Assembly: GCA_037440625.1 (NCBI GenBank)
Contig: JBBITT010000017.1
Coordinates: forward strand, 1,767-65,766
Direction: 5' to 3'
DNA length: 64,000 nt
DNA from: Chloroflexota bacterium
Lineage (GTDB): Bacteria > Chloroflexota > Anaerolineae > UBA4142
The position numbers and the translations under genes are program-made. Below, in pieces: positions 12,403-34,660 of the stretch. Under the pieces are notes generated by a model. The model was not told where the DNA came from. It did not search any database and worked only from the letters and a program-made list of their open reading frames with translations. Every line of letters begins with the position of its first letter. The stretch's first letter is position 1.

Positions 12403-12404
12403 AA

Positions 12405-18046: not shown

Positions 18047-18065
18047 ATTGGCTAAAATTCCTTGA

Positions 18066-19157
18066 ATGAAAATCCTCCACGTCTATAAAGATTATTTTCC
18101 GGTGGTTGGCGGGATTGAAAATCATATCAAGATGCTGGCAGAAGCCCAAGTGGCGCGCGGACACACAGTCAGCGTGTTGGTCACCAGCCGAGACCATCAC
18201 ACGCACATCGAGTATCTCAACGGCGTGCGCATCATTTTTGCCTCACGCCTTGCCACAATTTCTTCTGCACCCCTCAGCCTCGCCTTGTTCGATTTAATTC
18301 GCCGCGAATCGCCGGACGTAACGCATTTGCACTTTCCGTACCCGCTCGGCGAAATGGCAAACTTTTTTTTCGGACGTGCGCGCAAGACAATCCTCACGTA
18401 TCACAGCGACATTATTCGACAAAAATTTTTGCGCGTGCTATATCATCCGTTGATGGAGCGCATGCTTGCGCGCGCGGACCGCATTATCGCGACGAGTCCA
18501 AACTATATCGTCTCGTCGCCGGTCTTATCGCGTTACCAAAACAAATGCGTTGTCGTGCCGCTCGGCATTGATCCTGCTCCGTTTGAAAATGGGGTGCCAG
18601 CCAAATCACGTGTTATGCCTCACGCCTCACTTTTGTTTGTCGGTCATTTGCGCTATTACAAAGGCATCCACTATTTGCTTCAAGCGATGCGTGAGGTTCC
18701 GTGCGCGCACTTGACGATTGTGGGTACGGGACCGATGGAACGCGCGTGGCGCGAGTTGGCACAACGTTTGAACGTGAGCGACCGAGTTAGTTTTGCCGGC
18801 GTGGTGAGCGATGCCGAGTTGCCGGCGTACTACGCGGCGGCGGATCTTTTTGTGTTGCCAGCGTCGGAACGGAGCGAAGCGTTTGGCGCGGTGCAACTCG
18901 AAGCGATGGCAGCAGGCAAGCCGGTCATCTGTACCGAACTGGGAACGGGAACTAGTTTTGTGAACATCCACGAAGAGACCGGCTTGGTTGTGCCGGCACG
19001 TGATGCACACGCGCTTGCAGCGGCGATCCATCGGTTGCTGGCTGACCCGGCGTTACGCGTGCGAATGGGAAACGCCGGGCGCGCCCGCGTGCAATCCGAA
19101 TTTACTTTGGAAAAGATGGTTGAGCGAGTGCTGGAGGTGTACCAAGCCGTGCTGTGA
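18066..19157 (+). CDS. GT4 glycosyltransferase
   Basis: MKILHVYKDYFPVVGGIENH, LLFVGHLRYYKG, LPASERSEAFGAVQLEAMAAGKPVICTE. Confidence 0.8.
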   Translation: MKILHVYKDYFPVVGGIENHIKMLAEAQVARGHTVSVLVTSRDHHTHIEYLNGVRIIFASRLATISSAPLSLALFDLIRRESPDVTHLHFPYPLGEMANFFFGRARKTILTYHSDIIRQKFLRVLYHPLMERMLARADRIIATSPNYIVSSPVLSRYQNKCVVVPLGIDPAPFENGVPAKSRVMPHASLLFVGHLRYYKGIHYLLQAMREVPCAHLTIVGTGPMERAWRELAQRLNVSDRVSFAGVVSDAELPAYYAAADLFVLPASERSEAFGAVQLEAMAAGKPVICTELGTGTSFVNIHEETGLVVPARDAHALAAAIHRLLADPALRVRMGNAGRARVQSEFTLEKMVERVLEVYQAVL

Positions 19158-19210
19158 ACTTGCTTTATGGCGAGATGTGTGCAATCAAACTAACGTTCGA
19201 TGAAAAGGAA

Positions 19211-19274
19211 GGTTCGTAGTACGGCGATTGATCGCCACGTTGATGCAGCGCGATGAATCGCACGACTACAAACC
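19211..19274. repeat. Structured dispersed repeat, copy 2 (GGTTCGT...ACAAACC family)
   Basis: ggttcgtagt-acGGCGATtgATCGCC-acgttgatgcagc-GCGATgaATCGC-acgactacaaacc; two internal mini-hairpins closed by an outer stem. Confidence 0.55.
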
Positions 19275-19411
19275 TGAAACTTGCCCCTAAACTGAAATGC
19301 ACCCGTCATCACTCGCAATTTGAATCTACGGTGTGTTTAGGGTAAAATTAAAGGGACAAAGGTGCTTGCCATACTTGGCGTTGAGTCGCAACAATGTTCT
19401 TGGAGGAAATT

Positions 19412-20287
19412 GTGCAGCAAAACATCCGGCAAAAATTCTTCTCCGTCTTAATTGCGCTCATTCTCGGTTTGGCTTGGCTCGGTATCGTTGCGCCGGCGCA
19501 GGCGGTTACAGGTGGCACCGGCACAATCCGTCTGACCGGCTTGGGGATCACGTACACACAAAATTTTGACACGCTGGCTTATACGACGCAAACAACTCAT
19601 ACGCTCTCGATTGAAGGGTGGTATTTGGACGAGACGAGTACCAATGCAAACGGCTTGTATGCAGGCGGGACCGGCTCTGCCACTACTGGCGATACGTACA
19701 GTTTTGGAACGAGTGGTAGCACGGAACGCGCTTTTGGGACATTGTTGAGCAACTCGCTCACGCCGATGATTGGCGCGCAATTTACCAACAACACCGGACA
19801 AACCATCACAACGCTGTCCATCACCTACACAGGAGAGCAATGGCGATTAGGACAAAGCCGGGCAAGCCCGCCCGATCGCTTGGATTTTCAACTCAGTACG
19901 ACGGCTATCACGATCACGGCGCCCATTACTTACTGGGTGGATTACGACGCTCTCGATTTCTCTAGCCCGGTCACAAGCGGCACGGTGGGCGCGCTGGATG
20001 GGAATGCCGCCGCCAACCGCACGACTCTCAGTTACACCATCACGGGCTTGAGCATTGCCAATGGGGCATCGTTTTGGATTCGCTGGGTGGATTGGAATTT
20101 GAGCCCGGGTGCCGATGATGGACTTGGCATTGATGATTTTTCGCTCACGCCCAACAACCCAACCGCTGTAACGCTCTCTAATTTCAGTGCAATTCCTCTC
20201 GAAACCGGAGGGCTAGGATGGATTTTGGGTGGCTTGGGCGTGGCAGGATTGATGCTTGTGATGCGCCCGGTTGTCCGTCGTGAGTGA
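19412..20287 (+). CDS. Secreted beta-rich surface protein with C-terminal TM anchor and basic tail
   Basis: GTG 19412 after GGAGGA; signal peptide ending APAQA; Thr/Gly-rich body; C-terminus TAVTLSNFSAIPLETGGLGWILGGLGVAGLMLVMRPVVRRE. Confidence 0.6.
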   Translation: MQQNIRQKFFSVLIALILGLAWLGIVAPAQAVTGGTGTIRLTGLGITYTQNFDTLAYTTQTTHTLSIEGWYLDETSTNANGLYAGGTGSATTGDTYSFGTSGSTERAFGTLLSNSLTPMIGAQFTNNTGQTITTLSITYTGEQWRLGQSRASPPDRLDFQLSTTAITITAPITYWVDYDALDFSSPVTSGTVGALDGNAAANRTTLSYTITGLSIANGASFWIRWVDWNLSPGADDGLGIDDFSLTPNNPTAVTLSNFSAIPLETGGLGWILGGLGVAGLMLVMRPVVRRE

Positions 20288-20332
20288 CTGTGCCGAGTCG
20301 CATTGACAGAGACCTATTTCCTCCGCAGAGAT

Positions 20333-20372
20333 AAACACCCGGTTGGCTTGACCACGCCGGGTGTTTGCTTTT
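20333..20372 (+). terminator. Rho-independent terminator after the surface-protein gene
   Basis: aaacacccgg-(14 nt)-ccgggtgttt followed by gcttttcc. Confidence 0.65.
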
Positions 20373-20381
20373 CCGCGATAA

Positions 20382-20411
20382 TTTGCGCGCCGTTGGCAAC
20401 CGTCGTATAAT
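20382..20411 (+). promoter_or_regulatory. Candidate promoter TTTGCG-18-TATAAT for the Wzy-TPR operon
   Basis: tataat at 20406..20411, 27 nt before ATG 20439. Confidence 0.35.
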
Positions 20412-20438
20412 GGCGCAAACTTGTTTGCGGGAACGTGA

Positions 20439-23400
20439 ATGGGAACTCGTCTCTCAACTTTTTGCGATAAACTTTTGGAAGCCGGCTGGCTGGTGGCGCT
20501 CATCGTTGCGCCGCTCTTTTTCAACATCTATTCTAGCCGCGTGTTCGAGCCGGACAAGATTACGCTGGTGCGCTCGCTGGCATTGGTGATGGTCGGCGCG
20601 TGGCTCATCAAACAAATCGAAACCGGGTTGCCACGCGGCGCACTCCCCGATCTTTTCCGCGCTGTGTGGCAAGCCAACCCGCTAGTTCTGCCCACCTTTG
20701 CCGTCGTGATCGTCTATCTCGTTTCAACGATTTTGTCCGTCGCGCCGAACGTGAGTTTGTGGGGATCGTACCAACGTTTGCAAGGAACGTACACCACGTT
20801 TTCGTACATCACGATCTTTTTCTGCGCCGCGAGTACGCTACGCACGCGCGCGCAACTCGATCGTGCGATCAGTGTCATCATCGCAACGAGTTTTCCGATT
20901 GCGTTGTTTGGCATCCTCCAACATTTCAAACTCGATCCGCTGCCGTGGGGCGGCGACACGACGGAACGCGTCGCCGCCAATATGGGGAACTCGATTTTTG
21001 TTTCCGCGTACCTCATTATGATCGTACCGCTGACGCTCGCGCGCTGGATCGAAACGCTCGGTCGCCTCACGCGCAACCAGCCCCGCCGCTTGACATTCAT
21101 CGGACTTGGTGTGGTCATGTTGTTCGTCCTCCTCGTGGTATGGGCATTCAATTTTGCGTTCGGTATCGGTTTGGCGATTGGATTCATTGGGCTAGCATTG
21201 ATCGCTGGTTTGATGCGCCGACTTGTCTTGCGTGAAGCGTTGCTCGTTGCCACCCTAACGGTGATTCTTGCCACGCAACTGTTGACCATTTTCTTTTCGC
21301 AAAGTCGCGGTCCGTGGCTAGGCTTGGGCGCAGGTCTGTTTGCGTTTGGTCTGCTCGGCGCGTTGATGATTATGCATCGCTTGCCCCAACGATGGCGTGT
21401 GGTTACGTTGAGCGGCATTATCGGACTGGCGGTCTTGGCGATGGCGTTCCTCGTTGTCTTTAACTTACCCGCCTCACCACTCGAATCGCTCAAGCGGGTG
21501 CCGTATGTGGGGCGGCTGGGTCAAATTCTCGATCCCAACTCGCCGACGGCGCGCGTGCGTGAACTCATTTGGCAAGGTGCGCTCAAACTTGTTTTGCCGC
21601 ACGATCCCTTGTGGTCGCCGGTCACGGGCAATGACCCCTTTAATCTCATTCGTCCGTTGGTGGGTTATGGACCCGAAACCATGTATGTGGTCTATAATCC
21701 CTTCTATCCGCCGGAACTGGGAACGTTGGAAGCGCGCAACGCCTCGCCCGATCGTTCGCACAACGAGACCTTTGATTCGTTGGTCATCACTGGCTTGTTT
21801 GGCTTTGGCGCATACATCTTGGTGTTCGTTTCGATTTTTTACTTTGGCTTGAAATCGTTGGGGTTTATTACCACGACGGCGGAACGGAATGTGTTTGTTG
21901 CCTTGTGGCTCGTCACCGGCTTTGCCTTTGCGATTTTCTTTGGTGCGTGGCGCGGTTGGCATTGGATCGGCGTGGCGCTCCCCGCCGGTATGATCGTGGG
22001 CTTTCTCATCTTTCTGGTCGCGGAGGCGGTGCGCCGGTATCGCGCCGGCGGCGCGGTGCCGGAAGCATGGCGATCCTTATGGCTGAGCGCGCTGATTGCC
22101 GCGTTCATCGCGCACTTTGTCGAGATTCACTTTGGCATTGCCATCGTTTCGACGCGCACATATTTTTGGTTTTACGCGGCATTGTTGGTTGTGATTGGAA
22201 TGAATCACATCACCGAACACGCCACCACACCCGCCGCGCCCGAAGAATCGCCGCGTTCAATCGCCACGCGTCGTCGCTCACGTCGCCGCCCCAGCGAACA
22301 CGCGAATGCATCCGCCCCCGCGTCGCGCGAAGTTTCACCCGCCCCGGTCGTTGTGTGGACGATGATCGCCACACTCGTGATGATCACGCTCGCGTTCGAG
22401 TTCATCACCAATCGCACCGGCACACCCAGCCCCATCGAGATGATCAAAGAGTCGCTCTTTTACAAAGACAATCAAGTATCGTACGGCATCTTGGTGTTGT
22501 TCGTGCTGACGTGGGGTGTTACCGGCATCCTGGGTTTGGTGGAGCGTGCCTCAAAAGAGACGTGGCTCTATGATGTGTTGTTGTATTTGATCTTGTCGCT
22601 CACCGCGTTGTTGTGGTTTGTGTTGTTGCAAACGCGCTTGATCACCACCCCCGGCGATCTCACCGAAGCCTTCATCGCGTTGTTGGGCGAGTACTATATC
22701 GCCTTGTTCTTGGTGGTTGCCGTGCTAGCTTTGGCATTGTGGTTCGATCTGGTTCCGCGCCCCACGCTCGCGTTTCGGTCTGGGCTTGGCGCCGTGTTGG
22801 TACCAATCCTAGGGATCGGTTTGCTGTGGGGCGCGATGGTTACCAATTACGATGGCATCAAAGCCGATATTTTGTACAAAGCCGGCACCAACTTGGATGC
22901 GTCGGGGGCGTGGAACTTGAGCGCGCAAGCGTACAAACGCGCCTTCGAGCTACAGCCCGCGCAAGATTTCTATGCCTTGTTCTTGGGGCGCGCGTATTTG
23001 GAAAGTGCGCGCACGAGCACCGATGCAACGCAACGTCAGAAATTTCTTGCCGAGGCAGAAAGCACTTTGCTGCGCGCGCAACGCCTCAATCCGTTGAATG
23101 CCGATCACACCGCCAATCTGGCGCGAATGGAACGGGTCGTCGCTACGTTGATGGACAAGCCCGCCGATCGCGCGGAACATTTCCAACGGTCATCCAAATA
23201 TTACGCCGATACCTTACGGATCAGTCCTTACACCGCGCATCTGTGGAATGAATGGGCGTTGACGTTGATGCAAAGTGGCGATCTGCCGCAAGCGTTGGAA
23301 AAGCTCAATCAATCGCTCCGCATTGATCCAACCTTTGTGCAAACGTACGTGTACTTGGGCGATTATTATTTTTTGGCGCAAGACCCAGCCCATGCCGCCG

Positions 23401-24209
23401 AAAATTATTTCAAGGCATTAGAACGTGATCCCAACGCGCTCTCGGACGCAAATGGTGATTTGCAAGCCAACCCAGCCGCGCTCTTCAAGTTGCCCGAGTA
23501 TGCACCGCGCGCCATCGAGACCTATCGCGTGTTGGCAACCAAGTCTCCTTCCTTGTATCGCATTCTTGCCCAGTTGTATAAACAAAATGGCCAATTGGAC
23601 TTGGCGCGCCAAGCGTTCGAGCAAGCCGTGCGGAGCAACCCCAACGATTGGCTAGCCAGTCTCGATCTGGTCAACTTTTTATCCGAAGTCGGCGATATTG
23701 ATGCGGCGGTCAACGCGATGAAACATTTGATGACCTTGGTGCCGCAGAATCGTCCCGATTACGCGCGCTTTCAGGATTTCTACAACCAGTTGTTGGCACT
23801 GCAACGCGATTTGCAAGCCGCGCAAAAATCACCCAACGATGTGAACGCCCAACGCACTGTGGCGGCACGTTGGAAAGCACGCGGGCAACCCCAATTCGCG
23901 GTACCCGCCTATCAAGCCGTGGCGCGCCTTGTCCCCAACGATTACGATGCGCAAAAAAATCTCGTGTTGCTGAATTTGCAGTTGAATCGTTTGGAGGAAG
24001 CGCAAAACGCGTTGACGGCGGCAGTTGCGCTTGCACCTGAGAGCGACAAACCCTTGTGGCAAAATGTTCAAGTTGCGCTCAATGCCCACAAAGCCGGCAA
24101 GTTTGCCGAAGCGCAACAAGCAGCCCAGGCCGTCCTTGCCTTAGCCGCAGATGCAGACAAGCCGGTGGTGCAAGCCTACCTTGCCTTGTTACAAGAGAAA
24201 GCCAAATAG
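20439..24209 (+). CDS. Giant O-antigen ligase/polymerase-like (Wzy_C) membrane protein fused to C-terminal TPR repeats
   Basis: About 20 hydrophobic helices, SQSRGPWLGLG motif region, Arg-rich linker RRRSRRRPSEH, then about 400 aa of TPR-like helical repeats. Confidence 0.7.
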   Translation: MGTRLSTFCDKLLEAGWLVALIVAPLFFNIYSSRVFEPDKITLVRSLALVMVGAWLIKQIETGLPRGALPDLFRAVWQANPLVLPTFAVVIVYLVSTILSVAPNVSLWGSYQRLQGTYTTFSYITIFFCAASTLRTRAQLDRAISVIIATSFPIALFGILQHFKLDPLPWGGDTTERVAANMGNSIFVSAYLIMIVPLTLARWIETLGRLTRNQPRRLTFIGLGVVMLFVLLVVWAFNFAFGIGLAIGFIGLALIAGLMRRLVLREALLVATLTVILATQLLTIFFSQSRGPWLGLGAGLFAFGLLGALMIMHRLPQRWRVVTLSGIIGLAVLAMAFLVVFNLPASPLESLKRVPYVGRLGQILDPNSPTARVRELIWQGALKLVLPHDPLWSPVTGNDPFNLIRPLVGYGPETMYVVYNPFYPPELGTLEARNASPDRSHNETFDSLVITGLFGFGAYILVFVSIFYFGLKSLGFITTTAERNVFVALWLVTGFAFAIFFGAWRGWHWIGVALPAGMIVGFLIFLVAEAVRRYRAGGAVPEAWRSLWLSALIAAFIAHFVEIHFGIAIVSTRTYFWFYAALLVVIGMNHITEHATTPAAPEESPRSIATRRRSRRRPSEHANASAPASREVSPAPVVVWTMIATLVMITLAFEFITNRTGTPSPIEMIKESLFYKDNQVSYGILVLFVLTWGVTGILGLVERASKETWLYDVLLYLILSLTALLWFVLLQTRLITTPGDLTEAFIALLGEYYIALFLVVAVLALALWFDLVPRPTLAFRSGLGAVLVPILGIGLLWGAMVTNYDGIKADILYKAGTNLDASGAWNLSAQAYKRAFELQPAQDFYALFLGRAYLESARTSTDATQRQKFLAEAESTLLRAQRLNPLNADHTANLARMERVVATLMDKPADRAEHFQRSSKYYADTLRISPYTAHLWNEWALTLMQSGDLPQALEKLNQSLRIDPTFVQTYVYLGDYYFLAQDPAHAAENYFKALERDPNALSDANGDLQANPAALFKLPEYAPRAIETYRVLATKSPSLYRILAQLYKQNGQLDLARQAFEQAVRSNPNDWLASLDLVNFLSEVGDIDAAVNAMKHLMTLVPQNRPDYARFQDFYNQLLALQRDLQAAQKSPNDVNAQRTVAARWKARGQPQFAVPAYQAVARLVPNDYDAQKNLVLLNLQLNRLEEAQNALTAAVALAPESDKPLWQNVQVALNAHKAGKFAEAQQAAQAVLALAADADKPVVQAYLALLQEKAK

Positions 24210-24210
24210 G

Positions 24211-25206
24211 ATGACCACGCTCGTACTCATCTTTGCGACTGCCCTCGTCTTTGCCATAGGCGCAACGCCGATCGCGCGCCGCATTGCTGTGCATACCGGG
24301 ATGATAGACCAACCGAATGCGCGCAAAGTCCACACGACCCCCATTCCCCGTTTGGGCGGCGTGGCGATCTATGGCGCATTTATGCTCGGGCTGATTTTGT
24401 TCGCCGATCGGTTTTACATTCCCCAGTTGATTAGCATCATCGTTGGCGCAACGTGGGTGTCGTTTCTAGGATTGTGGGATGATCGCGTGGGCTTGAATGC
24501 GTGGATCAAACTGTTGGGCCAGGTCTTGGCCGCCGTGTTGCTCATTCTCACCGGCGTTTCGGTGGATTTGGTTCATCAACCTATCGTGGATGCGGCGATT
24601 GCGCTTGTTTGGATTGTGGGCATTACCAACGCGATGAACTTGCTCGATAATATGGATGGCCTCTCCGGCGGCGTGGCTGCCATCGCCTCCGGTTTTTTTC
24701 TGTTGATCGCCTGGCTCAACGGCCAGTATCTGGTGGGCAGTTTGTGTGCAGCACTCTTTGGTGCGTCCATCGGTTTTTTGATTTACAATTTTAACCCCGC
24801 TTCTATTTTTATGGGCGATGCGGGGAGTCTCTTTCTCGGCTTTGTGTTGGCGGCGGTTGGATTGAAATTACGCTTTGTCACGCAACCACTGGCAGAAACC
24901 TGGTTCATTCCGATTCTGGTGCTGGGGCTTCCTATTTTCGATACGACTCTTGTCTTTGTCTCGCGTTTGCGGCGCGGGTTGAATCCGTTGATGCATCCCG
25001 GCAAAGATCACATTTCGCATCGTTTGGTCGAACGCGGGATGACGCGCCGCGAAGCCGTCTTGCTCTTGTATCTCGTGGCGTGTGCCCTCGGCATCATTGC
25101 GATGTTTAGTGTGCGGATCGGGACGTGGCAGGCACAAGGAGTATTTGCGCTGGTCATCCTAGCGGGGCTCGTTGCCTTGTACGAATTTGAATTTCGCCGG
25201 GTGTGA
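24211..25206 (+). CDS. WecA/MraY-family polyprenyl-phosphate N-acetylhexosamine-1-phosphate transferase (initiating enzyme)
   Basis: DQPNARKVHTTPIPRLGG, ITNAMNLLDNMDGL, NFNPASIFMGDAGSLFLGF. Confidence 0.85.
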   Translation: MTTLVLIFATALVFAIGATPIARRIAVHTGMIDQPNARKVHTTPIPRLGGVAIYGAFMLGLILFADRFYIPQLISIIVGATWVSFLGLWDDRVGLNAWIKLLGQVLAAVLLILTGVSVDLVHQPIVDAAIALVWIVGITNAMNLLDNMDGLSGGVAAIASGFFLLIAWLNGQYLVGSLCAALFGASIGFLIYNFNPASIFMGDAGSLFLGFVLAAVGLKLRFVTQPLAETWFIPILVLGLPIFDTTLVFVSRLRRGLNPLMHPGKDHISHRLVERGMTRREAVLLLYLVACALGIIAMFSVRIGTWQAQGVFALVILAGLVALYEFEFRRV

Positions 25207-28028
25207 GGGAGGATGGTGTGACACTGGAACAACGCATTGCTCAAAAGACAGCGCGCCTTGCCGTGGTGGGCTTGGGGTATGTGGGTTTGCCTTTGGCAAC
25301 TGAATTTGCGCGCGAAGGTTTTTCGGTGGTTGGCATAGACATTGATGCGCGCAAAGTGGAGAAACTGAATCGTGGCATCAGTTACATTCCCGATGTCGAA
25401 ACCCGGACGGTCAAGCACTTGGTCGCCCGCAAAAAATTTTCCGCCACAACCGATTATGCCGCCATTGCGAATAGCGATGTCATTTTCATTTGCGTCCCCA
25501 CCCCGTTCGATGAAATGAAGGCACCCGATCTCAAACCGGTGATTGCAGCGACCCAGAGTATCACGCCCCACTTGAAGCAAGGGCAACTGGTCATCTTGCA
25601 AAGCACAACCTACCCGGGAACGACGGAAGAAGTCTGCCTGCCGATTCTGGAAACCAGCGGCTTGAAAGCCGGCAAAGATTTCCATCTTGCGTTTTCACCG
25701 GAACGAATTGATCCGGGCGCGACAAGTAGTCAAGGTTGGAACGTCAAGAACACGCCCAAGACCTTGGGCGGACTCACGCCGAAATGCACTCGTTTGGCAA
25801 AAGCGTTACTTGTTCATCTCACACCTCAGGTCTTTGCCGTCTCTTCGCCGCGGGTGGCGGAGATGAGCAAACTTTTGGAAAACATCTTTCGCGCCGTGAA
25901 CATCGCCTTGGTCAACGAATTAGCCCTCTTGTCCGAGCGAATGGGGATTGATTTTTGGGAAGTGATCGAAGCGGCCAAGACCAAGCCGTTTGGTTTTATG
26001 GCGTTCTATCCCGGTGCGGGGGTCGGTGGCCATTGTCTAGGCGAGAACGAATTCCTCTTCGTCAAGAATGGGCGTGGACTGACGAGCGTCCGCGTCGGCG
26101 AGTACTTTACAGAGATACAGCAACAACAGCCGACCACGGCGCGGCAAGTTGGCGAGGTAACGCTGCTGGAGCCAGAGGGCATCCATGCGCTTTCATTTGA
26201 TCCTGAGCGGCAAAAAGTTTGTCTCAAACCACTGGTGGCATTGTCGCGTCGCACGTATCATGGAACGCTCGTGGATGTTACCACCATTGATCGTCGTCGC
26301 CTCATGGTGACAGATGGTCATCCGATGGTCGTATGGAAAGAAGGCGCGCTACACGTCCAGCGCGCGGATACGCTCCAAGTCGGCGATGAGTTGATCGTGG
26401 CAACGCATTGGCTTGACAGTACGGCCACCCCCACCATTGATCTGATTCCTCATCTGACGCCAGAGGAAATTGCCAAGATTCGCGTCATGCCCCAGCACGG
26501 GCGTTTCGCTGACTATCGCGAGCAGTTCACACCGGGTCTCAAGGCACTCGGTGTTGATCCTCACCAAGTCTATCGCTCGAATCGGATGCCGCTGGCAATT
26601 TACTTGGCGCTGGAGAAGCAAGGCATCACGCCGTTCTCTCGTCGCGATATCGTGTTGCGGACTGGGCGTGGTCCATCGTGGAATGCGATGCCCGCCGTGA
26701 TCGTTGTGGACGAAGCATTCGCTCGCTTGGTTGGTTACTATCTGAGCGAAGGGTGCATTACGCGAGACAAATCGTTGCGGACGCGTTGGACCTTCAACGC
26801 CGATGAACGCGAGTATCTTGACGATGTTTGTCGCATCCTGAGCGGGCTGGGGGTCCGCTTCTCCAAGCGCAAGGATAGAATTTGGAATGCTGTCCAAATC
26901 AAGGTGTCCTCTCATTTGTTCGCGCGTCTGTTGCGTGATGTATTACAATGCGGCACACGCTCGACCAATATGCAGATTCCCGGCATCTTGATGGAAGCCC
27001 CCGCGCCAATCCGCCTGGGCGTGCTGGCAGGATTGTTGCGCGGCGATGGCGATGTAAATTTGGAACAGCGTGTCCGGCATTATTATCACCAGAAGAAGCG
27101 GCGCGCCTATGACCATCATATCAACGTCGCAACGGTCGGCTATTTCTCGAGCAGTCCACACCTTTTTCAACAGACCGTTTTGCTCGCGCAAGGACTGGGT
27201 TTCGTTCCAACGTTCAAGCAAGGCAAACCGTACTTGCGATTCTACGGCGAGCAGCAACTGGCGCGCCTCTTGCCGCTCTTCGAAGGGGATAAACGCGCCG
27301 CCTTGAAAAAGTATGCGGAGGGACGACGGAAGCGGATGCCCACCAAGAGCTTCGGCGCACACCGCAACTTGGCAACAGTCAAGGTGGCAGCGGTTTCGCA
27401 CCAAGTTGGAACGCACACCGTCTATTCCGCCGAAATTAAAGATACGCACACCTTTGTCACCTCCTACGGCATTGTCACACACAATTGTATCCCCGTGGAC
27501 CCGTACTATCTTTCGTGGAAGGCGCGCGAGTACGATTTTTATACAAAGTTCATCGAACTCGCCGCCGAGATCAATCAAGGCATGCCGTATCACGTGGTCA
27601 AACTGGCGCACGATCTCTTGAGCCAACACGGCAAAGCGATCAAGAACGCGCGCGTGCTCGTCTTGGGGGTGGCGTTCAAACCGAACGTGGACGATGCGCG
27701 CAACTCACCCGCCGAGCGCGTCATTGAATTGTTGCTCAACAATGGCGCGCAGGTCCGTTATCACGATCCGTACGTGCCGACGTTTCGCGTGGGGAACAAT
27801 GTGTTCTTGCGCGAAACCATCGAATTGAAATCCGTGCCACTCACACGCGACGAATTGCGCCGCAACGATCTCGTCGTCATTGTAACCGCGCATCGCAAGG
27901 TCAACTATCGTTGGGTCACACGCCATGCGCCATTGATCGTGGATTCGGCGAACGCGACCAAAGGATTGGGCGACCCCGCCAAAATCATTCGTGTGGGCGC
28001 GCCCTTTGCTAAGAAAGGCAAGCAATGA
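25203..28028 (+). CDS. Nucleotide-sugar (UDP-N-acetylhexosamine/UDP-glucose family) 6-dehydrogenase interrupted by an intein
   Basis: Rossmann LAVVGLGYVGLP; exteins join as GAGVGGH/CIPVDPYYL; 941 aa in total, 457 aa without the insert; GTGA overlap with the upstream gene (alternative GTG at 25218). Confidence 0.9.
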   Translation: MREDGVTLEQRIAQKTARLAVVGLGYVGLPLATEFAREGFSVVGIDIDARKVEKLNRGISYIPDVETRTVKHLVARKKFSATTDYAAIANSDVIFICVPTPFDEMKAPDLKPVIAATQSITPHLKQGQLVILQSTTYPGTTEEVCLPILETSGLKAGKDFHLAFSPERIDPGATSSQGWNVKNTPKTLGGLTPKCTRLAKALLVHLTPQVFAVSSPRVAEMSKLLENIFRAVNIALVNELALLSERMGIDFWEVIEAAKTKPFGFMAFYPGAGVGGHCLGENEFLFVKNGRGLTSVRVGEYFTEIQQQQPTTARQVGEVTLLEPEGIHALSFDPERQKVCLKPLVALSRRTYHGTLVDVTTIDRRRLMVTDGHPMVVWKEGALHVQRADTLQVGDELIVATHWLDSTATPTIDLIPHLTPEEIAKIRVMPQHGRFADYREQFTPGLKALGVDPHQVYRSNRMPLAIYLALEKQGITPFSRRDIVLRTGRGPSWNAMPAVIVVDEAFARLVGYYLSEGCITRDKSLRTRWTFNADEREYLDDVCRILSGLGVRFSKRKDRIWNAVQIKVSSHLFARLLRDVLQCGTRSTNMQIPGILMEAPAPIRLGVLAGLLRGDGDVNLEQRVRHYYHQKKRRAYDHHINVATVGYFSSSPHLFQQTVLLAQGLGFVPTFKQGKPYLRFYGEQQLARLLPLFEGDKRAALKKYAEGRRKRMPTKSFGAHRNLATVKVAAVSHQVGTHTVYSAEIKDTHTFVTSYGIVTHNCIPVDPYYLSWKAREYDFYTKFIELAAEINQGMPYHVVKLAHDLLSQHGKAIKNARVLVLGVAFKPNVDDARNSPAERVIELLLNNGAQVRYHDPYVPTFRVGNNVFLRETIELKSVPLTRDELRRNDLVVIVTAHRKVNYRWVTRHAPLIVDSANATKGLGDPAKIIRVGAPFAKKGKQ
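26034..27485 (+). mobile_element. Intein with LAGLIDADG homing-endonuclease domain (484 codons)
   Basis: Cys1 CLGENEF; block B TDGHP; LVGYYLSEGC and LAGLLRGDGD; C-terminal IVTHN followed by +1 Cys. Confidence 0.9.
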
Positions 28029-28645
28029 CTGAATTACCGATTCAACTTCCCCAACCCCCTCCGTTACTCATCGTCGTCTCGGGTCCATCGGGCGTGGGCA
28101 AAGATGCCGCCTTGCGCCGGATGCGCGAGTTGAACTATCCGTTTCATTTTCTGGTCACCAACACCACGCGCCCCCAGCGCCCCAATGAGGTGGATGGCAA
28201 GGATTATCACTTTATCACCAAGGAACAATTTGCGGCGATGGAAGCGCGCGGGGAATTTTTGGAACGCGCGGTGGTCTATGGTTACGATTACGGCAACTCA
28301 CGCCGCGAAGTGCGCGAAGCATTAGAACGTGGGCAAGACGTGATCATGCGGATTGACGTGCAAGGCGCGGCGACGATCAAACGCATCGTGCCCGAGGCGG
28401 TGTTTATTTTTCTGATGCCGCCCTCAATGCAAGCACTCGAAGCCCGGCTACGCCGACGGCGTACCGAGCCCGAAGACTATTTGCGCTTGCGGCTTCATGC
28501 CGCACGCCTTGAGATGAACGAGTTTGAAAAATTCGATTACGTGATTGTGAATGAGGACGATCAGTTGGACGATACCGCCCAATTGATCCATTCGATCATT
28601 CGAGCGGAAAAGTGCCGGGTCAAGCCGCGGCAGATTATTTTGTGA
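28025..28645 (+). CDS. gmk: Guanylate kinase
   Basis: LLIVVSGPSGVGKDA, TTRPQRPNEVDGKDYHF, AVVYGYDYG; ATGA overlap with the dehydrogenase. Confidence 0.92.
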   Translation: MTELPIQLPQPPPLLIVVSGPSGVGKDAALRRMRELNYPFHFLVTNTTRPQRPNEVDGKDYHFITKEQFAAMEARGEFLERAVVYGYDYGNSRREVREALERGQDVIMRIDVQGAATIKRIVPEAVFIFLMPPSMQALEARLRRRRTEPEDYLRLRLHAARLEMNEFEKFDYVIVNEDDQLDDTAQLIHSIIRAEKCRVKPRQIIL

Positions 28646-28656
28646 GCCGCACCCAA

Positions 28657-28695
28657 GAAGGCAGCCGCTCTTTTTGAGCGACTGCCTCGTTTTTT
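28657..28695. terminator. Bidirectional terminator between gmk and the GH1 gene
   Basis: gaaggcagccgctc-ttttt-gagcgactgcctc followed by gtttttt. Confidence 0.6.
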
Positions 28696-30001
28696 AGCAA
28701 CCATTTTGCGCGATCACATTGGCGTACCACTCGCCGCTGTCTTTGATGATACGTTGTTGCGTTGCAAAATCCACATAAACGATTCCAAAGCGTTTGGAGA
28801 AACCGTACGACCACTCAAAGTTGTCGAGCAAGGACCACACAAAGTAGCCGCGCACATCCACGCCATCTTGGATCGCACCGTGCAACTCGCGCAAATGCTC
28901 GCGCACATAGTTGATGCGACGCGGATCATGGACGCGCCCATCCGCGCTCACCTCATCGCGGAACGCCGCTCCGTTTTCGGTGATGTAAATCGGCGGCAAG
29001 CGATACGTGCGCTGGAGGCGACGCAACAATCTGCCTAACGCCGGCGCGTGAACTTCCCAGCCCATTTCGGTGTATTCAGAACCGGGGACGGGATGAACAC
29101 GCACCCCATTTTGGATCAATTGCCGCGAATAATAATTCACGCCGAGAAAATCAAGGTGTTGCGCGATCAATGCAAAATCGCCCGGCAAAACGCGCGGGGT
29201 ATTCTCGCCAAGGGTTTGCCACGTCTCGGTTGGATAATTGCCGCACAACACCGGTTCGATAAACCATCCCGTGCCCATTTGCCACGCCTGCCTGGCAAGC
29301 GCGTGATCCTGCGGCGAATCGGTGCCGGCTTCGGTGGGGAACATATCGAGGACGATCCCGGCGTTCACCGGCGGTGCGATGGCGCGAATCGCTTGCATGC
29401 CCAGCCCGTGCGCGATGAGCAAATGATGGGCGGCTTGGTACGCGAGTTTTTCATCCATGATTCCCGGCGCGTGGCGGCCCTCGCGATAACCAATGAACGC
29501 TGCCACCCAAGGTTCGTTGAGCGTGATCCAGTTTTGGACGCGATCGCCTAGGCGGCGCACGACGATGGCGGCGTAATCGGCAAAATAGCCCGCTGTATCT
29601 CGATTCAACCAACCGCCGTCCAACGCTTGCGGCAAATCCCAATGATACAGGGTGATGTACGGCGTGATGTTCGCGGCGAGCAATTCATCTACCAAGCGGC
29701 TGTAAAAATCGAGACCGCGTTGATTCACCGCCCCACGCCCATTGGGCAGAATACGGGTCCACGCCATCGAAAAGCGATACGCGCGCAAACCCAGTCGGCG
29801 CATCAATGCCACATCCTCGCGCCAACGATGATAGTGATCGCAGGCGACATCGCCGGTATCACCATTTTCGATTTTGCCGGGCGTGTGTGAAAAACGATCC
29901 CAAATGGATTCGCCCTTGCCATCCTCGTTCCACGCCCCTTCGATTTGATACGACGCGGTTGCCGCGCCCCACACAAAATCTTTGGGAAAAGTCAAGGTCA
30001 T
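28694..30001 (-). CDS. GH1 beta-glucosidase
   Basis: FVWGAATASYQIEGA, TLNEPW (acid/base), ITENGAA (nucleophile). Confidence 0.92.
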   Translation of the reverse strand: MTLTFPKDFVWGAATASYQIEGAWNEDGKGESIWDRFSHTPGKIENGDTGDVACDHYHRWREDVALMRRLGLRAYRFSMAWTRILPNGRGAVNQRGLDFYSRLVDELLAANITPYITLYHWDLPQALDGGWLNRDTAGYFADYAAIVVRRLGDRVQNWITLNEPWVAAFIGYREGRHAPGIMDEKLAYQAAHHLLIAHGLGMQAIRAIAPPVNAGIVLDMFPTEAGTDSPQDHALARQAWQMGTGWFIEPVLCGNYPTETWQTLGENTPRVLPGDFALIAQHLDFLGVNYYSRQLIQNGVRVHPVPGSEYTEMGWEVHAPALGRLLRRLQRTYRLPPIYITENGAAFRDEVSADGRVHDPRRINYVREHLRELHGAIQDGVDVRGYFVWSLLDNFEWSYGFSKRFGIVYVDFATQQRIIKDSGEWYANVIAQNGC

Positions 30002-30867
30002 TTTGTCCGCTCCTGAATTTGTTCAAGAGTTTGTACGTGGGTGTGAAATTCCCACGTCTCCGTATGCGCGACGCTTTGTTGGGGTTCAAGCCATTGCAGC
30101 GGCGCCAATGTCTCTAGTTCAATAAATTCATCGTTGCAATACACCTCGGCGTTGCAATTCAAATCTGGGTGCAGCGCGCTAGGATGTGGTGTAAATCGTT
30201 TAACGAAAAGAATTTCGTTGCGCCAGTATGCCATCCATCCGGCGCGATTCAAGTAACCGATTTTGCACGGTGGCAGTTCAGCGCGCGCGTGAATGCGAAC
30301 AACATCGTCGCGCAATTCGAGACGTGGGTCATTGACGCGGGTATAGCGCCACAAAACCAAATTGCGATTCGGGAGTAAACCGTGTTCATCCACCGGCTCT
30401 CTCGTTTGTGGCAGAATAGCGACGCCGCCCAGTTTCAACATCGTCAGTGACCAGGGGGCAAGTTCGATGCTTTGCGTGCCCGTGTTTTCGAGCGAGTGTG
30501 TTAAGGTGAGTGCAGCGTGTCCGGCGCGTAGATGAATTTCGATGTGTTTGCGAATCCCGGTGAGTGGTTCGGGCGATTGGTGCAACCTCACGCCGTCTGC
30601 CAGTGGTTCGAGGCGGATCGGTGCGTTATCGGGTTGGTAGGTTTGGGGTATTTTTTCCGGCGCGTACCACAAACGATGCCCGCCCCGGAAAAAATAATCG
30701 CCGAGCGGTGTGGCTATTTTTTTCTGCGGCACTTCGGCAAACCAATTTTCTTCCGAACCGCGCAGGAACAAGCGCACGAGGCGTGGACCCGCCTCCACCA
30801 GAAATTCCAATCGCAGAAAATCATTTTCGAGGCTGCGTGTTGCGAGTCCGTAATAATCGTTGCTCAT
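29998..30867 (-). CDS. Conserved hypothetical protein, possibly with a mutarotase-like beta-sandwich
   Basis: FRGGHRLWYAPE motif; overlaps both neighbours by 4 nt; no catalytic assignment possible by eye. Confidence 0.4.
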   Translation of the reverse strand: MSNDYYGLATRSLENDFLRLEFLVEAGPRLVRLFLRGSEENWFAEVPQKKIATPLGDYFFRGGHRLWYAPEKIPQTYQPDNAPIRLEPLADGVRLHQSPEPLTGIRKHIEIHLRAGHAALTLTHSLENTGTQSIELAPWSLTMLKLGGVAILPQTREPVDEHGLLPNRNLVLWRYTRVNDPRLELRDDVVRIHARAELPPCKIGYLNRAGWMAYWRNEILFVKRFTPHPSALHPDLNCNAEVYCNDEFIELETLAPLQWLEPQQSVAHTETWEFHTHVQTLEQIQERTK

Positions 30868-33302
30868 TGCAGTGTAACCTCGACCGTGATGTGTGTGCGG
30901 CCATCGGTGGGAAGCGGCACCAGATTGCCCTCGATCGCTTTGCCTTCTACGGTGAGGGATGCGTGATTGCCTTCTCCTACTCGTTCAACATCAATGAGGT
31001 ACGTTACCCCGCGAAAGAGGCGGGTGGCGCGGAACCTTTTCCACGCGCGCGGAATCACCGGCGCAATCTGCAAGCCATCGTACGTAGGGCGAATGCCTAG
31101 GATATACTGTGTGATGGCAATGTAATTCCACGCCGCTGTGCCGGTGAGCCAAGAATTTTTGGCTTCGCCAAAGGTGGGCGCATCGCGTCCGGCAATCATT
31201 TGGGCGTACACATACGGTTCGCACCGATGCACCTCGCTGAGGGCTTCGCGCACGGAAGGATTGATGCGCGCGTAATAATCGTGTGCACGGTCGCCGTTGC
31301 CCACCAACGTTTCGGCGATCATGATCCAAGGATTGGTGTGGCAAAAAATGCCGGCGTTCTCTTTATAGCCCGGCGGATAGGATGAAATTTCGCCCAAATG
31401 TAAATAATAGCGCGAGAACGCCGGCTGTTGCAAAATGATTCCGTGCGGCGTCGCCAAATATTTTTCCACCGAATCGAGCGCGCGTTGGGCATAGCCATTC
31501 TTCAAGCCAACGCCTGCCATCACACACCACCCTTGCGTCTCGATAAAAATTTTCCCCTCTGGATTTTCGCGCGACCCTACCGGGCGTCCCAGGTCATCGT
31601 ACGCACGCAAGAACCATTCGCCATCCCAGCCATGCTGTAAAATAGTCGCGCGCATTTTTTCTGCGGCTTGGCAATACCCCGCATCGTTGCCGGTGTATCG
31701 TTGGGCAATTTCTGCCATCTCTGTCGCTGCCACGACAAACAAACCGGCGATCATCAATGATTCTGCAATCTTGCCATCCTTGTGGGTAGTGGTTTGAAAC
31801 GATTCGCCCGGTGTGGCGGAGAAACAATTGAGATTGAGGCAATCGTTCCAATCTGCCCGTCCGATGAGTGGCAAACCATGCGGTCCCAAGCGATCCAACG
31901 TGTATTGCATACTGCGTTGCAAATGATCGAACAAGGGCTGTTCCGTACCGGGATGTTGATCGTAGGGCACCGGTTCGGCGAGGATGCTCCAATCGCCGGT
32001 CTCTTTGAGATATGCGGCAACGCCCAGCACGAGCCACAAGGGATCATCGTTGAAATTCGAACCAATGTCATTATTGCCTTGTTTGGTGAGGGGTTGATAT
32101 TGATGATAGGCACCGCCATTTTCCAGTTGCGTCGCCGCCAGATCAAGCAGGCGTTCGCGGACGCGGGCAGGCACCATCTGCACACAACCCATCAAGTCTT
32201 GATTCGAGTCTCGAAAACCGATGCCGCGTCCAATCCCGGCTTCATACAACGATGCCGAGCGCGCGAGGTTGAACGTCACCATACATTGGTACGCGTTCCA
32301 AATATTTACCATTCGATTGGTGTGGGCGTCCGGCGTTTCGATGTGCAAACGCGCTAGCCATTTGTCCCACGCGGCGCGCAACTCGGCGAAGGCGGCGTCC
32401 ACGCTTTGCGGATTGAGATATTTTTCGATGATGGGCTTGACCGTGCGCTTGTTGATGATCTGGGAATGCGGCGGATCGAATTTCTGGTCGGGCGGGTTTT
32501 CGTGATACCCCAACACAAAAATGATTTGGCGCGATTCGTTGGGTGCCAGTGTAACCCGAACATGATGCGAGCCAATGGGCTGCCAGCCATGCGCCATCGA
32601 ATTGCACGATTCACCGCGTTCTACCACAATGGGCTGATCCCAGCCGCGGTACGCGCCCAGAAAATCGTCGCGTTGTGTGTCAAAGCCAGCCAGCGGCTCG
32701 GAGCAAGCAAAGTACGCAAAATGATTGCGGCGTTCGCGGTATTCGGTCTTGTGGTAGATCACGCCTTGATCCACTTCGACTTCGCCCGTGTTCCAGTTGC
32801 GTTGAAAATTGGTGGCGTCGTCTTGCGCGTCCCACAAACAAAATTCGATGGCAGAGAAAATGGCGCATTGGGCGGGCGTAGAGCGTTGATTGGTCAAGGT
32901 GAGTTGCCAAATTTCTAGATTTTCATCGAGCGGGACGAAATAGCGGATGGACGCGCGAATCTGTTGATAAGTTGAGGTGATGATCGTGTACCCAAGTCCA
33001 TGCCGACACGTGTACTCTGCGAGAGGCGAGCGCGTGGGTTGCCAAGTGGGCGACCAAAAGTGATGGTTAGCGTTATCGCGCAGATAAAGGTAGCGTCCGC
33101 CTAAATCGAGCGGGGCGTTGTTGTAGCGATAGCGAGTGAGCCGGCGCAAGCGCGCATCGCGGTAAAAGGAATATCCCCCGGCGGTGTTCGAAATCAATCC
33201 AAAATACTCGCGCGTGCCAAGATAGTTGATCCAGGGCAAGGGTGTGTTGGGTTGCGTAATGACATACTCGCGTTGTTCGTCGTCAAAGAATCCGTAACGC
33301 AT
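30864..33302 (-). CDS. GH94 cellobiose/cellodextrin phosphorylase
   Basis: MRYGFFDDEQREYVITQPNTPLPWINYLG N-terminus, 812 aa, FRDSNQD region typical of GH94. Confidence 0.88.
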   Translation of the reverse strand: MRYGFFDDEQREYVITQPNTPLPWINYLGTREYFGLISNTAGGYSFYRDARLRRLTRYRYNNAPLDLGGRYLYLRDNANHHFWSPTWQPTRSPLAEYTCRHGLGYTIITSTYQQIRASIRYFVPLDENLEIWQLTLTNQRSTPAQCAIFSAIEFCLWDAQDDATNFQRNWNTGEVEVDQGVIYHKTEYRERRNHFAYFACSEPLAGFDTQRDDFLGAYRGWDQPIVVERGESCNSMAHGWQPIGSHHVRVTLAPNESRQIIFVLGYHENPPDQKFDPPHSQIINKRTVKPIIEKYLNPQSVDAAFAELRAAWDKWLARLHIETPDAHTNRMVNIWNAYQCMVTFNLARSASLYEAGIGRGIGFRDSNQDLMGCVQMVPARVRERLLDLAATQLENGGAYHQYQPLTKQGNNDIGSNFNDDPLWLVLGVAAYLKETGDWSILAEPVPYDQHPGTEQPLFDHLQRSMQYTLDRLGPHGLPLIGRADWNDCLNLNCFSATPGESFQTTTHKDGKIAESLMIAGLFVVAATEMAEIAQRYTGNDAGYCQAAEKMRATILQHGWDGEWFLRAYDDLGRPVGSRENPEGKIFIETQGWCVMAGVGLKNGYAQRALDSVEKYLATPHGIILQQPAFSRYYLHLGEISSYPPGYKENAGIFCHTNPWIMIAETLVGNGDRAHDYYARINPSVREALSEVHRCEPYVYAQMIAGRDAPTFGEAKNSWLTGTAAWNYIAITQYILGIRPTYDGLQIAPVIPRAWKRFRATRLFRGVTYLIDVERVGEGNHASLTVEGKAIEGNLVPLPTDGRTHITVEVTLQ

Positions 33303-33325
33303 AAAGGTCCTTGAAAACGCAAACT

Positions 33326-34660
33326 CTATTTCCCAGGCATCGTCAAAAGGGTCACCGAAGTTGGTGGCATAGTATATGAGAATTCAGAAGGAATGTCTAT
33401 GGGTGATTCTTCCGTCGCGTTGTGTGTTGGATCGAATAGGCGCACGGTGGCGCGCCCAATCGGTGTCCAATGATCGAGAGTGAGTGGGCGGGTTTGGATT
33501 TGATCACTCAGGTTGATGAGCATCAAGGTCAATGCCTCGCCTTGGCGCGCGGCGTAAATCGAAATTTGAGAATCGTCTGATGAAGCATAGACCAATTCAT
33601 TGCCAAAGCGTTTCCACATTTGGTACGTGTAGTACGCTGGGCGCACCGTGTCGCGCGCGAGCAAACCATAGCCGCCGATATTTGAATTGCTTTGCAAACT
33701 AAACTGTGCGACGATGTCTACGCGTGCATGAATCAAACGCCCCAGCACATCGGCGAGCCACAGCGCATTGTTGAACGTATCCATCCCCGTTTCGCCTCCC
33801 ATCGTGCCCGACCAACTCGAATTGAATTCGGTGATGGCAATGGGCAGATCGCGTTTAGCGTGCTCGCGCACGACGGCGCGTAAATTTGTGGCGATGGTAT
33901 CCCAGCGTGCGGCATCGGCAAAGAGTTCAGCCCGCGTGGGCCGGACACCCATTTGGGTGGGAAACGGATAGCGATGCACGGCAACCACATCTACCAGATC
34001 ACCGTTCGCTTTCAGAAATTCACGCAGCCAATCGCGCCCGGCGGAATCTTTGGGGTCCATATTCGGTTCGCCGGTGAATTGATGGATGTCGGGTCCGACG
34101 AGCAGAATCGAGGGATCAGCCGCTTTCATGGCTTGCGCAAACGTGCGCCACTCGATGTTGTATTTTTCTGCATCGTAATCTTTGTAGAGTGAAGGTTCGT
34201 TGCCAATGCTCCAATATTTGATGCGATAATTTTGTGCGCGCGCATAATGGATGAGCGCCACAGCTTTTTCGGGTGTGCCGCCGCGCAAGCGTACACTGAC
34301 GAGCGGCTCGGCATTGATTTGGCGTGCCTGTGCAATGAACAAATCGAATTGCCATGGCTCGATGTCATTTTCATCGCCCCAGTTCCCGCCGGGAAATCGA
34401 ATCAGCGTGATACCCGAAGCGAGAAATTCCTTTTGCACATCTTCGGTGATGATTGCCCAGGGTCCGTGATTCGTCCCGAGCACCAATCGGCTGATGGTGC
34501 CTAGGTTGCGTGTTGTATCAACATACAAGCCCACCGGTCTCGGTGTGGCGGTTGGTGCCAAGCGCGTGGAGGTGGGACTCGCCGCGTTTTGCGGCGCCAC
34601 GCAAGCGGCGAGTCCCGATATAAGGAGAAGAAGTGGTTCAAGCGGTATGCATCGTTTCAT
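33326..34660 (-). CDS. Secreted clan GH-A (TIM-barrel) glycoside hydrolase lipoprotein
   Basis: Start MKRCIPLEPLLLLISGLAAC (lipobox); RFPGGNWGDE, SIGNEP (acid/base), ITEFN (nucleophile). Confidence 0.65.
   Translation of the reverse strand: MKRCIPLEPLLLLISGLAACVAPQNAASPTSTRLAPTATPRPVGLYVDTTRNLGTISRLVLGTNHGPWAIITEDVQKEFLASGITLIRFPGGNWGDENDIEPWQFDLFIAQARQINAEPLVSVRLRGGTPEKAVALIHYARAQNYRIKYWSIGNEPSLYKDYDAEKYNIEWRTFAQAMKAADPSILLVGPDIHQFTGEPNMDPKDSAGRDWLREFLKANGDLVDVVAVHRYPFPTQMGVRPTRAELFADAARWDTIATNLRAVVREHAKRDLPIAITEFNSSWSGTMGGETGMDTFNNALWLADVLGRLIHARVDIVAQFSLQSNSNIGGYGLLARDTVRPAYYTYQMWKRFGNELVYASSDDSQISIYAARQGEALTLMLINLSDQIQTRPLTLDHWTPIGRATVRLFDPTHNATEESPIDIPSEFSYTMPPTSVTLLTMPGK

Follow-up and report, generated by a model that had tools for sequence, protein, structure and literature searches.

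A class-1 LAGLIDADG intein at the catalytic-cysteine motif of a nucleotide-sugar dehydrogenase in an Anaerolineae polysaccharide locus

In a Chloroflexota bacterium of the class Anaerolineae (GenBank assembly GCA_037440625.1, contig JBBITT010000017.1), the gene for a nucleotide-sugar dehydrogenase carries 484 additional codons immediately ahead of the cysteine of its catalytic motif. How could an active enzyme be made from such a gene, what is the inserted element, and is it a settled passenger or a mobile one? We addressed these questions in a stretch of 64,000 nucleotides (nt) of the contig (positions 1,767 to 65,766 of the forward strand), hereafter called the window, in whose numbering all positions are given. 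A preliminary description of the window, made from its sequence by itself, had read the insert as a full-length intein. Our analysis leads to the same reading, to which we assign a probability of about 0.9: the insert is a canonical class-1 intein with a LAGLIDADG endonuclease, an instance of the udp (UDP-GD) allele, located between the His and the catalytic-motif Cys of a WecC/TviB/Cap5O-like dehydrogenase that ends a Wzx/Wzy-type polysaccharide cluster.

The insert and its host enzyme

The listing of open reading frames (ORFs) and their translations gives a single uninterrupted frame of 941 codons at 25203..28028 on the plus strand. The longest ORF begins with a GTG at 25203, which overlaps the stop of the upstream gene; the dehydrogenase probably starts at GTG 25218, in which case the precursor has 936 aa and the spliced enzyme 452 aa. 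We prefer the latter start because a Shine-Dalgarno-like GGGAGGA lies at 25207-25213, orthologues start with VTLEQ at this point, and the deposited NCBI protein (P0001; 936 aa, 100% identical to the window product) is annotated from MTLEQ. The insert comprises codons 278-761 (nt 26034..27485; 1452 nt, 484 codons, in frame) and runs from CLGENEF to GIVTHN, after which the enzyme continues with CIPVDPYY; the preliminary description had placed it exactly here. The codons for Cys1 and for the Cys that follows the insert (Cys+1) are both TGT, so that the insertion point in the DNA can be placed only to within one codon. Base composition was dropped as a mark of foreign origin, the G+C content overall and at third codon positions being indistinguishable between the insert (0.556 and 0.630) and the flanking exteins (0.544 and 0.648). 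A transposon or insertion sequence was also rejected: the insert is in frame and has no repeats beyond the shared TGT codon. Two long antisense ORFs lie inside the intein on the minus strand, at 26349..26915 and 26943..27629 (188 and 228 aa, respectively); they are probably incidental, since they are antisense to a coding frame under purifying selection.

Profile searches identified both functional parts of an intein. With the insert alone as query, the splicing-domain and endonuclease families proposed for it both exceeded their Pfam cut-offs (PF14890, Intein_splicing, 39.4 bits against 35.8; PF14528, LAGLIDADG_3, 30.8 against 22.5). Among the NCBIfam models, TIGR01443, which describes the C-terminal splicing region, matched residues 463-484 with 22.5 bits (cut-off 15.6), and TIGR01445, for the N-terminal splicing region, reached 23.9 bits, just below its cut-off of 24.5; the insert also gave partial matches to several intein-containing equivalogs. 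A search of the PDB by sequence returned the intein endonuclease PI-PkoII as the best relative of solved structure (E=1.6e-23). An AlphaFold2 model of the intein, built on 19 diverse homologues, had a predicted local distance difference test score (pLDDT) of 93.2 and a predicted template modeling score (pTM) of 0.91. Its top Foldseek matches in the PDB are all endonuclease-associated inteins, namely PI-PkoII, TliVMA, PI-PfuI, PhoVMA, and PI-SceI (including entries 2cw7, 7qsu, 1dq3, and 1vde), followed by mini-inteins that match the Hint part with root mean square deviations of 1.4-2.6 A over ~125 residues; the endonuclease core additionally matches the free-standing LAGLIDADG enzymes I-Tsp061I, I-OnuI, I-SmaMI, and E-DreI. 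The best fold relative, PI-PkoII (intein 2 of the Thermococcus kodakarensis DNA polymerase, 2cw7; Foldseek E=5.5e-31, TM-score 0.65), has the Hint domain and the LAGLIDADG core in common with the window intein, along with the acids of both motifs, but it resides at another site in a family B DNA polymerase, is only ~19% identical, and is an experimentally characterized endonuclease, whereas the window intein is known from sequence.

The residues on which splicing and cleavage would depend were all found where the preliminary description had put them: Cys1, the TxxH of block B, two LAGLIDADG motifs with their acidic residues, and GIVTHN followed by a +1 Cys (Table 1). Conservation was scored in a joint alignment of up to 120 homologues, with 118 or 119 sequences at some positions, and the LAGLIDADG motifs proved to be near-invariant even among homologues with only ~40% overall intein identity. 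In two homologues, P0015 and P0253, Gly replaces the penultimate His (GN/C, the slash marking the splice junction). For the linker or extra domain between the Hint and endonuclease parts, we infer a possible role in DNA binding. Bacterial intein-like (BIL) domains are not known to carry an endonuclease and are typically located in variable proteins; this class was rejected, since the insert has an endonuclease, its Cys+1 is conserved, and so is its host protein. On sequence evidence, the identification as a full-length class-1 LAGLIDADG intein directly N-terminal to the catalytic-motif cysteine is supported on every test that was run.

Removal of the insert in silico yields a 457-aa product (452 aa from GTG 25218) that reads ...GAGVGGH/CIPVDPYY... 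and recreates GGHCIPVDP, as had been anticipated. In this product, the N-terminal, central, and C-terminal UDPG_MGDP_dh domains (PF03721, PF00984, and PF03720) are all unbroken, and the Pfam match to the central domain changes from two stretches to one while its score rises from 104.6 to 114.7 bits. The spliced product scores 436.9 bits against TIGR03026 (nucleotide-sugar dehydrogenase; cut-off 189.8) and aligns without a gap over the junction to WecC/Cap5O/WbpO-type enzymes of known structure: the P. horikoshii UDP-ManNAcA (UDP-N-acetylmannosaminuronate) dehydrogenase (4r16), S. aureus Cap5O (3ojl), and an NDP-GalNAcA dehydrogenase (3g79). In each of these, the Cys of GVGGHC pairs with Cys+1, in agreement with the claim that the +1 residue is the active-site cysteine. 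Its counterpart in the Cap5O chain is residue 270, after a 12-residue tag, which we take to be native Cys258, described as catalytic. For human UGDH, a published study reports covalent catalysis by the equivalent Cys276 (PMC3265891). The precursor must lack activity until it is spliced, since the 484 residues keep the active-site Cys apart from the remainder of the central domain. None of the substrate-specific NCBIfam equivalogs for WecC, TviB, or Ugd reaches its cut-off (NF040825, 288.5 against 750 bits; NF008286, 250.7 against 459; NF011729, 223.2 against 592; NF041297, 193.4 against 670), so that the substrate may be UDP-N-acetylglucosamine (UDP-GlcNAc), UDP-N-acetylmannosamine (UDP-ManNAc), or another. 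In JGI, orthologues without the intein are labelled UDP-GlcNAc dehydrogenase, and those that carry it UDP-ManNAcA dehydrogenase.

Given what is established about the chemistry of LAGLIDADG enzymes and of class-1 inteins, the following course of events would be expected. Translation would produce the 936-aa precursor, in which Cys1 would undergo an N-S acyl shift with the help of Thr93 and His96 of block B, and Cys+1 would attack the resulting thioester (trans-thioesterification). Asn484, assisted by His483, would cyclize and release the intein, and an S-N shift would restore GGH-CIPVDP in an active 452-aa dehydrogenase that uses the same Cys+1 as its nucleophile. The freed 484-aa protein, in which Glu239 and Asp338 would bind a divalent metal, could cut empty alleles at the sequence coding for GGHCIPVDP, and repair of a cut allele would copy the intein into it (homing). 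That the supply of uronic acid to the locus would depend on splicing is a reasonable inference.

Natural empty alleles and the spread of the intein

A search with the spliced exteins as query returned intein-free orthologues at 96, 96, 93, 92, and 86% identity. Two intein-free loci, one from assembly GCA_034433515.1 (L002) and one from SRR11582170 (L003), are syntenic with the window; all three share the gene order unknown gene, Wzy_C/TPR, Glycos_transf_4, dehydrogenase, guanylate kinase, GH1, DUF4380, GH94, and GH39 (GH, glycoside hydrolase family). The two loci are collinear with the window at 93.9-96.0% nucleotide identity over 13.3 kb, and an uninterrupted 452-aa enzyme is encoded at such a locus in a close relative. 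By BLASTN, L002 aligns to window positions 19213..26036 (93.9%) and 27484..34028 (96.0%), with exactly 1452 nt missing between them, and L003 aligns to these two stretches likewise without the insert; the overlap of the aligned ends is the shared TGT codon. The L002 junction reads TCCCGGCGCAGGGGTGGGTGGCCAT up to the insertion point and TGTATTCCAGTAGATCCGTACTAT from there on. These alignments fix the boundaries of the intein independently of the motif reading and rule out a transposon-like insertion. Within the extein, the window and L002 differ at 50 codons synonymously and at 18 nonsynonymously. Divergence between the two over 19213..34028 is patchy, ranging from 0 to 37 differences per 200 nt, with 34 at 25413-25612 (in the N-extein) and 37 at 20613-20812, which suggests mosaic homologous recombination along the locus.

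The preliminary description had supposed that a bacterial copy of such an intein would be uncommon, a view that does not hold. With the full-length query, at least 120 clusters at 90% identity were listed, nearly all of them 900-950 aa long, and at least 119 clusters, from at least six bacterial phyla, have the intein at the same GxGGH/C site; two bacterial cases had in fact been published in 2014 (PMC4071816). Named sources include Chloroflexi/Anaerolineae, Omnitrophica, Planctomycetes, Eisenbacteria, Acidobacteria (Blastocatellia, Pyrinomonadaceae), and Gemmatimonadota, and the same architecture occurs in clusters from NCBI, JGI, ENA, and Logan assemblies. Many of these proteins carry the JGI label 'UDP-N-acetyl-D-mannosaminuronate dehydrogenase/intein/homing endonuclease'; annotation pipelines that name such 900-aa proteins merely 'nucleotide sugar dehydrogenase' overlook the intein. 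In a library clustered at 50% identity, the intein matched 66 representatives at E<=1e-30 and 186 at E<=1e-10. The bacterial metagenomic proteins share the enzyme subfamily, the site, and the intein family with the window protein and are 41-80% identical to it, but the window sequence is distinct from them and its nearest extein relatives (96%) are intein-free. The closest intein, from Anaerolineales bacterium UBA4826 (protein P0002, locus L001), is 77.5% identical, and its exteins are 81.6% identical. Derivatives also occur whose endonuclease is partly or wholly deleted, the intein being 412 aa long in P0092 and 266 aa in P0104.

Comparison with catalogued intein alleles, which the preliminary description had proposed, led to the udp (UDP-GD) allele: the site is the same and the inteins are homologous. 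Published surveys place UDP-glucose dehydrogenase among the top 15 intein hosts in archaea and outside the bacterial top 15 (PMC4760082), and a 2014 list of the udp allele names Halobacteria, Methanococcales, Thermococcus, Dictyoglomus thermophilum, and a Fervidibacteria genome, with Methanothermococcus okinawensis and Methanocaldococcus jannaschii as members (PMC4071816). Like the window allele, these alleles have a host of the UDP-glucose/GDP-mannose dehydrogenase family, Cys1...HN/Cys+1 termini, and a similar architecture and length. The intein of Methanothermococcus sp. Ax23 (P0306, WP_421077467.1) is homologous to that of the window over residues 6-484 (30% identity, E=1.7e-28), which bears out the statement of the preliminary description on archaeal inteins in homologues of UDP-glucose dehydrogenase; the site is GGH/C in the window and GGS/C, with HN/CFPKD at its end, in Ax23 and other Ugd-type hosts. 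Judging from this Methanococcales relative, the UDP-glucose dehydrogenase intein of Methanocaldococcus jannaschii would be expected at the same site. The archaeal members differ from the window allele in that its host is a bacterial, COG0677 WecC/TviB-like enzyme (GGHCIPVDP), and intein identity is only ~30%. Homologous inteins were observed at the equivalent catalytic-Cys site of Ugd-type dehydrogenases in P0306, P0267, P0300, P0301, P0325, P0328, and P0330. As judged from these alignments, the site is common to both dehydrogenase subfamilies and to bacteria and archaea.

The window intein therefore belongs to a known, already annotated allele and is not rare; the concepts of intein biology are unchanged by it, and it is a well-documented, ordinary case. 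The metagenomic data nevertheless correct the impression left by the surveys of 2014-2015, in which dehydrogenase inteins were mainly archaeal with only two bacterial entries, since they place the udp allele in many bacterial phyla and in both dehydrogenase subfamilies. Relatives outside the dehydrogenases are found in PurL (FGAR amidotransferase), where the inteins of P0268, P0271, P0278, P0283, P0287, and P0296 are 29-36% identical to that of the window over residues 1-484 and have the same Hint and LAGLIDADG layout, but differ in host gene and in site, at residue ~134-157 of PurL. Through these full-length homologues, the same intein lineage is seen in two unrelated metabolic host genes.

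Constraint, homing, and competing explanations

Selection on the intein was estimated as the ratio of nonsynonymous to synonymous substitution rates (dN/dS) by the Nei-Gojobori method, relative to the nearest intein-bearing allele (L001). The ratio was 0.048 for the endonuclease core and 0.11 for the whole intein, compared with 0.07-0.13 for the exteins, 0.15 for the N-terminal and 0.10 for the C-terminal splicing part, and 0.26 for the linker region; all of these values are approximate, because dS is saturated at ~1.3 or more (1.29 for the intein, 1.26-1.51 for the exteins). The low ratio in the core and the retention of both motif acids accord with the earlier view that the endonuclease looks intact. 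In a neighbor-joining tree of the exteins of 122 taxa, the three most closely related intein-bearing alleles (that of the window, P0002, and P0003) are separate tips within an intein-free clade of ~80 alleles; their nearest intein-free alleles are 96, 85, and 93% identical, respectively, versus ~81% between the intein-bearing ones. In some pairs (P0007, P0013, and P0034), intein identity exceeds extein identity. Scattered occupied and empty alleles, together with endonuclease-deleted forms and constraint, are what one would expect to see under a homing cycle in which invasion and/or loss recur (general model, PMC1654191). The constrained endonuclease core and the singly scattered intein alleles point to a homing element that may still be active.

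Several observations weigh against the reading as a whole, a splicing class-1 intein with a homing endonuclease, in addition to the saturation of dS. Intein and extein identities correlate (r = 0.73), from which much of the inheritance of the intein may be vertical. Identity to the nearest known intein is only 77.5%, and no donor was found. The data would fit either gain in the window lineage or loss in its relatives. Block F has Ser at position 4 in 120 of 120 homologues, and class-1 inteins usually carry Asp there. Nor did co-conversion of flanking DNA provide proof of recent homing. Between the window and L002, 7 of the codons 266-277, next to the junction, differ silently, compared with ~1 difference per 60 nt in the immediate flanks, but ~6% of all 36-nt windows reach the same count when the patchy alignment is scanned over its 13 kb; L007 and L009 have 7 consecutive silent differences across the junction, which 23% of windows match. 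Neither signal is significant, the junction codons are mostly four-fold degenerate, and across eight alleles the silent sites at the junction do not sort by intein status.

It is possible, though on the whole unlikely, that the intein splices while its endonuclease is no longer active in homing, the element being a fixed, vertically inherited passenger and the intein-free relatives the products of precise loss by recombination with empty alleles. Such a history would accommodate the co-variation of intein and extein identities, the similar dS of the two, a composition equal to that of the host, the failure to find a near-identical donor intein among 5.8 billion proteins, and the nonsignificant co-conversion signal. 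However, decay should degrade the endonuclease, as in P0092 and P0104, whereas here no part of the intein is more constrained than the core, and both catalytic acids are kept in at least 96% of homologues, some of them only ~40% identical; moreover, the window allele is nested among intein-free alleles, so that several independent precise losses would be needed. A dead allele with a nonsplicing insertion, or a chimera of assembly or binning, is effectively refuted already. P0001 comes from a single NCBI contig and the window is probably metagenome assembled, but the 941-codon frame is uninterrupted with all splicing residues present, purifying selection acts on the exteins, at least 119 independent clusters have this architecture, and the flanks are perfectly collinear with those of L002 and L003.

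We consider it very improbable that the host has turned the intein into a conditional switch, its splicing depending on redox state (for example, by way of a disulfide between Cys1 and Cys+1), on temperature, or on some other cue, so that formation of the active-site Cys and the supply of uronic acid for the envelope glycan would be regulated post-translationally. The insertion lies exactly at the catalytic cysteine and its precursor must be inactive, both junction nucleophiles are Cys in 119-120 of 120 homologues, and the allele persists over many phyla; conditional splicing of other inteins has been discussed (PMC4760082) and is reported for a mycobacterial DnaB intein (PMC6195587). Yet selfish inteins, too, generally occupy conserved active-site motifs, which offer conserved endonuclease targets and prevent imprecise loss, no sequence feature specific to regulation was found, and the existence of very close relatives without the intein in an otherwise identical locus makes it dispensable. 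A canonical, splicing class-1 intein with a constrained endonuclease remains the reading that we prefer.

What the window adds to the known allele is an occupied/empty pair, together with the evidence for a constrained endonuclease. The pair provides a ready target site for a new LAGLIDADG specificity and a natural system for intein dynamics in uncultured Chloroflexota. Much more speculatively, the window and GCA_034433515.1, with ~5% DNA difference and the same gene order, could show an intein in the course of invading a natural Anaerolineae population, or a population in which occupied and empty alleles stably coexist. Because the catalytic cysteine of an enzyme for envelope-glycan precursors lies directly under the control of this site, the intein could perhaps also switch polysaccharide synthesis in response to redox state or other conditions; we regard this scenario as improbable.

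The polysaccharide locus and the rest of the window

The dehydrogenase gene is the last of a same-strand cluster that extends from ~7 kb to 28 kb and contains flippase, glycosyltransferase, Wzy_C, and WecA-like genes (Table 1), in keeping with its earlier description as a glycan locus. The Glycos_transf_4 neighbor is also present in L002-L007 and L010. An ORF at 19394-20287 (297 aa) had no Pfam match.

Table 1. Positions of the intein, its host gene, and other features in the window (aa, intein residues where a range is given; GT, glycosyltransferase family; fractions, conservation among aligned homologues)
Feature	Position	Strand	Remarks
Precursor gene, nucleotide-sugar 6-dehydrogenase (COG0677/WecC-TviB-Cap5O-like) split by intein	25218..28028	+	936-aa precursor (probable start)
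N-extein	25218..26033	+	NAD-binding domain and first part of central domain; ends ...PGAGVGGH
Intein, 484 aa, class 1 with LAGLIDADG homing endonuclease	26034..27485	+	Profiles, PI-PkoII match, model, absence from L002/L003
C-extein	27486..28028	+	Remaining central domain, UDP-binding domain, stop codon
Cys1 (block A), predicted nucleophile of first acyl shift	26034..26036	+	Cys in 119/119
Block B TDGH (Thr93, His96)	26310..26321	+	T in 119/120, H in 120/120
N-terminal part of Hint splicing domain, aa 1-130	26034..26423	+	Aligns with PI-PkoII residues 16-125 and with KlbA and TFIIB mini-inteins; all-beta in model
Linker/extra domain between Hint and endonuclease, aa 131-220	26424..26693	+	Least constrained part (dN/dS 0.26 vs 0.05-0.15 elsewhere); helical in model
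LAGLIDADG endonuclease core, aa 221-420	26694..27293	+	PF14528; aligns with PI-PkoII 268-394; dN/dS 0.048 vs L001
LAGLIDADG motif 1, RLVGYYLSEG	26724..26753	+	Predicted catalytic acid Glu239 (26748..26750), E in 117/119; LVGYYLSEG pairs with LLGYYVSEG of PI-PkoII
LAGLIDADG motif 2, VLAGLLRGDG	27021..27050	+	Predicted catalytic acid Asp338 (27045..27047), D in 114/118; LAGLLRGDGDV pairs with LEGYFIGDGDV of PI-PkoII
Blocks F and G, VYSAEIKDTHTFVTSYGIVTHN	27420..27485	+	Ends His483-Asn484; HN in 119/120 (one GN); TIGR01443 match 463-484
Cys+1, predicted splice-junction nucleophile and cysteine of the GGHC motif	27486..27488	+	Cys in 120/120
Wzx/Wzy-type polysaccharide cluster	7076..25206	+	Polysacc_synt_3 flippase, three GT2, methyltransferase, five GT1/GT4, GFO/IDH/MocA oxidoreductase, Wzy_C+TPR, WecA-like Glycos_transf_4
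GFO/IDH/MocA oxidoreductase	16942-17991		Within polysaccharide cluster
Wzy_C (O-antigen ligase/polymerase-like) and TPR membrane protein	20439..24209	+	1256 aa
Upstream neighbor, WecA/MraY-type Glycos_transf_4 (polyprenyl-phosphate sugar-1-P transferase family)	24151..25206	+	Stop 12 nt before likely dehydrogenase start
Downstream neighbor, guanylate kinase	28025..28645	+	4-nt overlap with dehydrogenase stop codon; synteny conserved
Glycan-utilization block	28694..38415	-	GH1 beta-glucosidase, DUF4380 protein, GH94 phosphorylase, GH39-like protein, two ABC (ATP-binding cassette) permeases
RelA/SpoT gene	45691..47841	+	HD_4, RelA_SpoT, TGS, ACT
Second cluster, large membrane glycosylation proteins	49186..59477		Four with PMT_2 matches (one also YfhO) and a Wzy_C protein
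tRNA-Leu(CAG) gene	1242..1326	-	

Searches of the window by tblastn with intein and extein queries found no second intein and no dehydrogenase paralogue, and no Rfam family matched anywhere in the window at gathering thresholds. In the glycan-utilization block, a 520-aa ORF with no Pfam match may encode a solute-binding protein.

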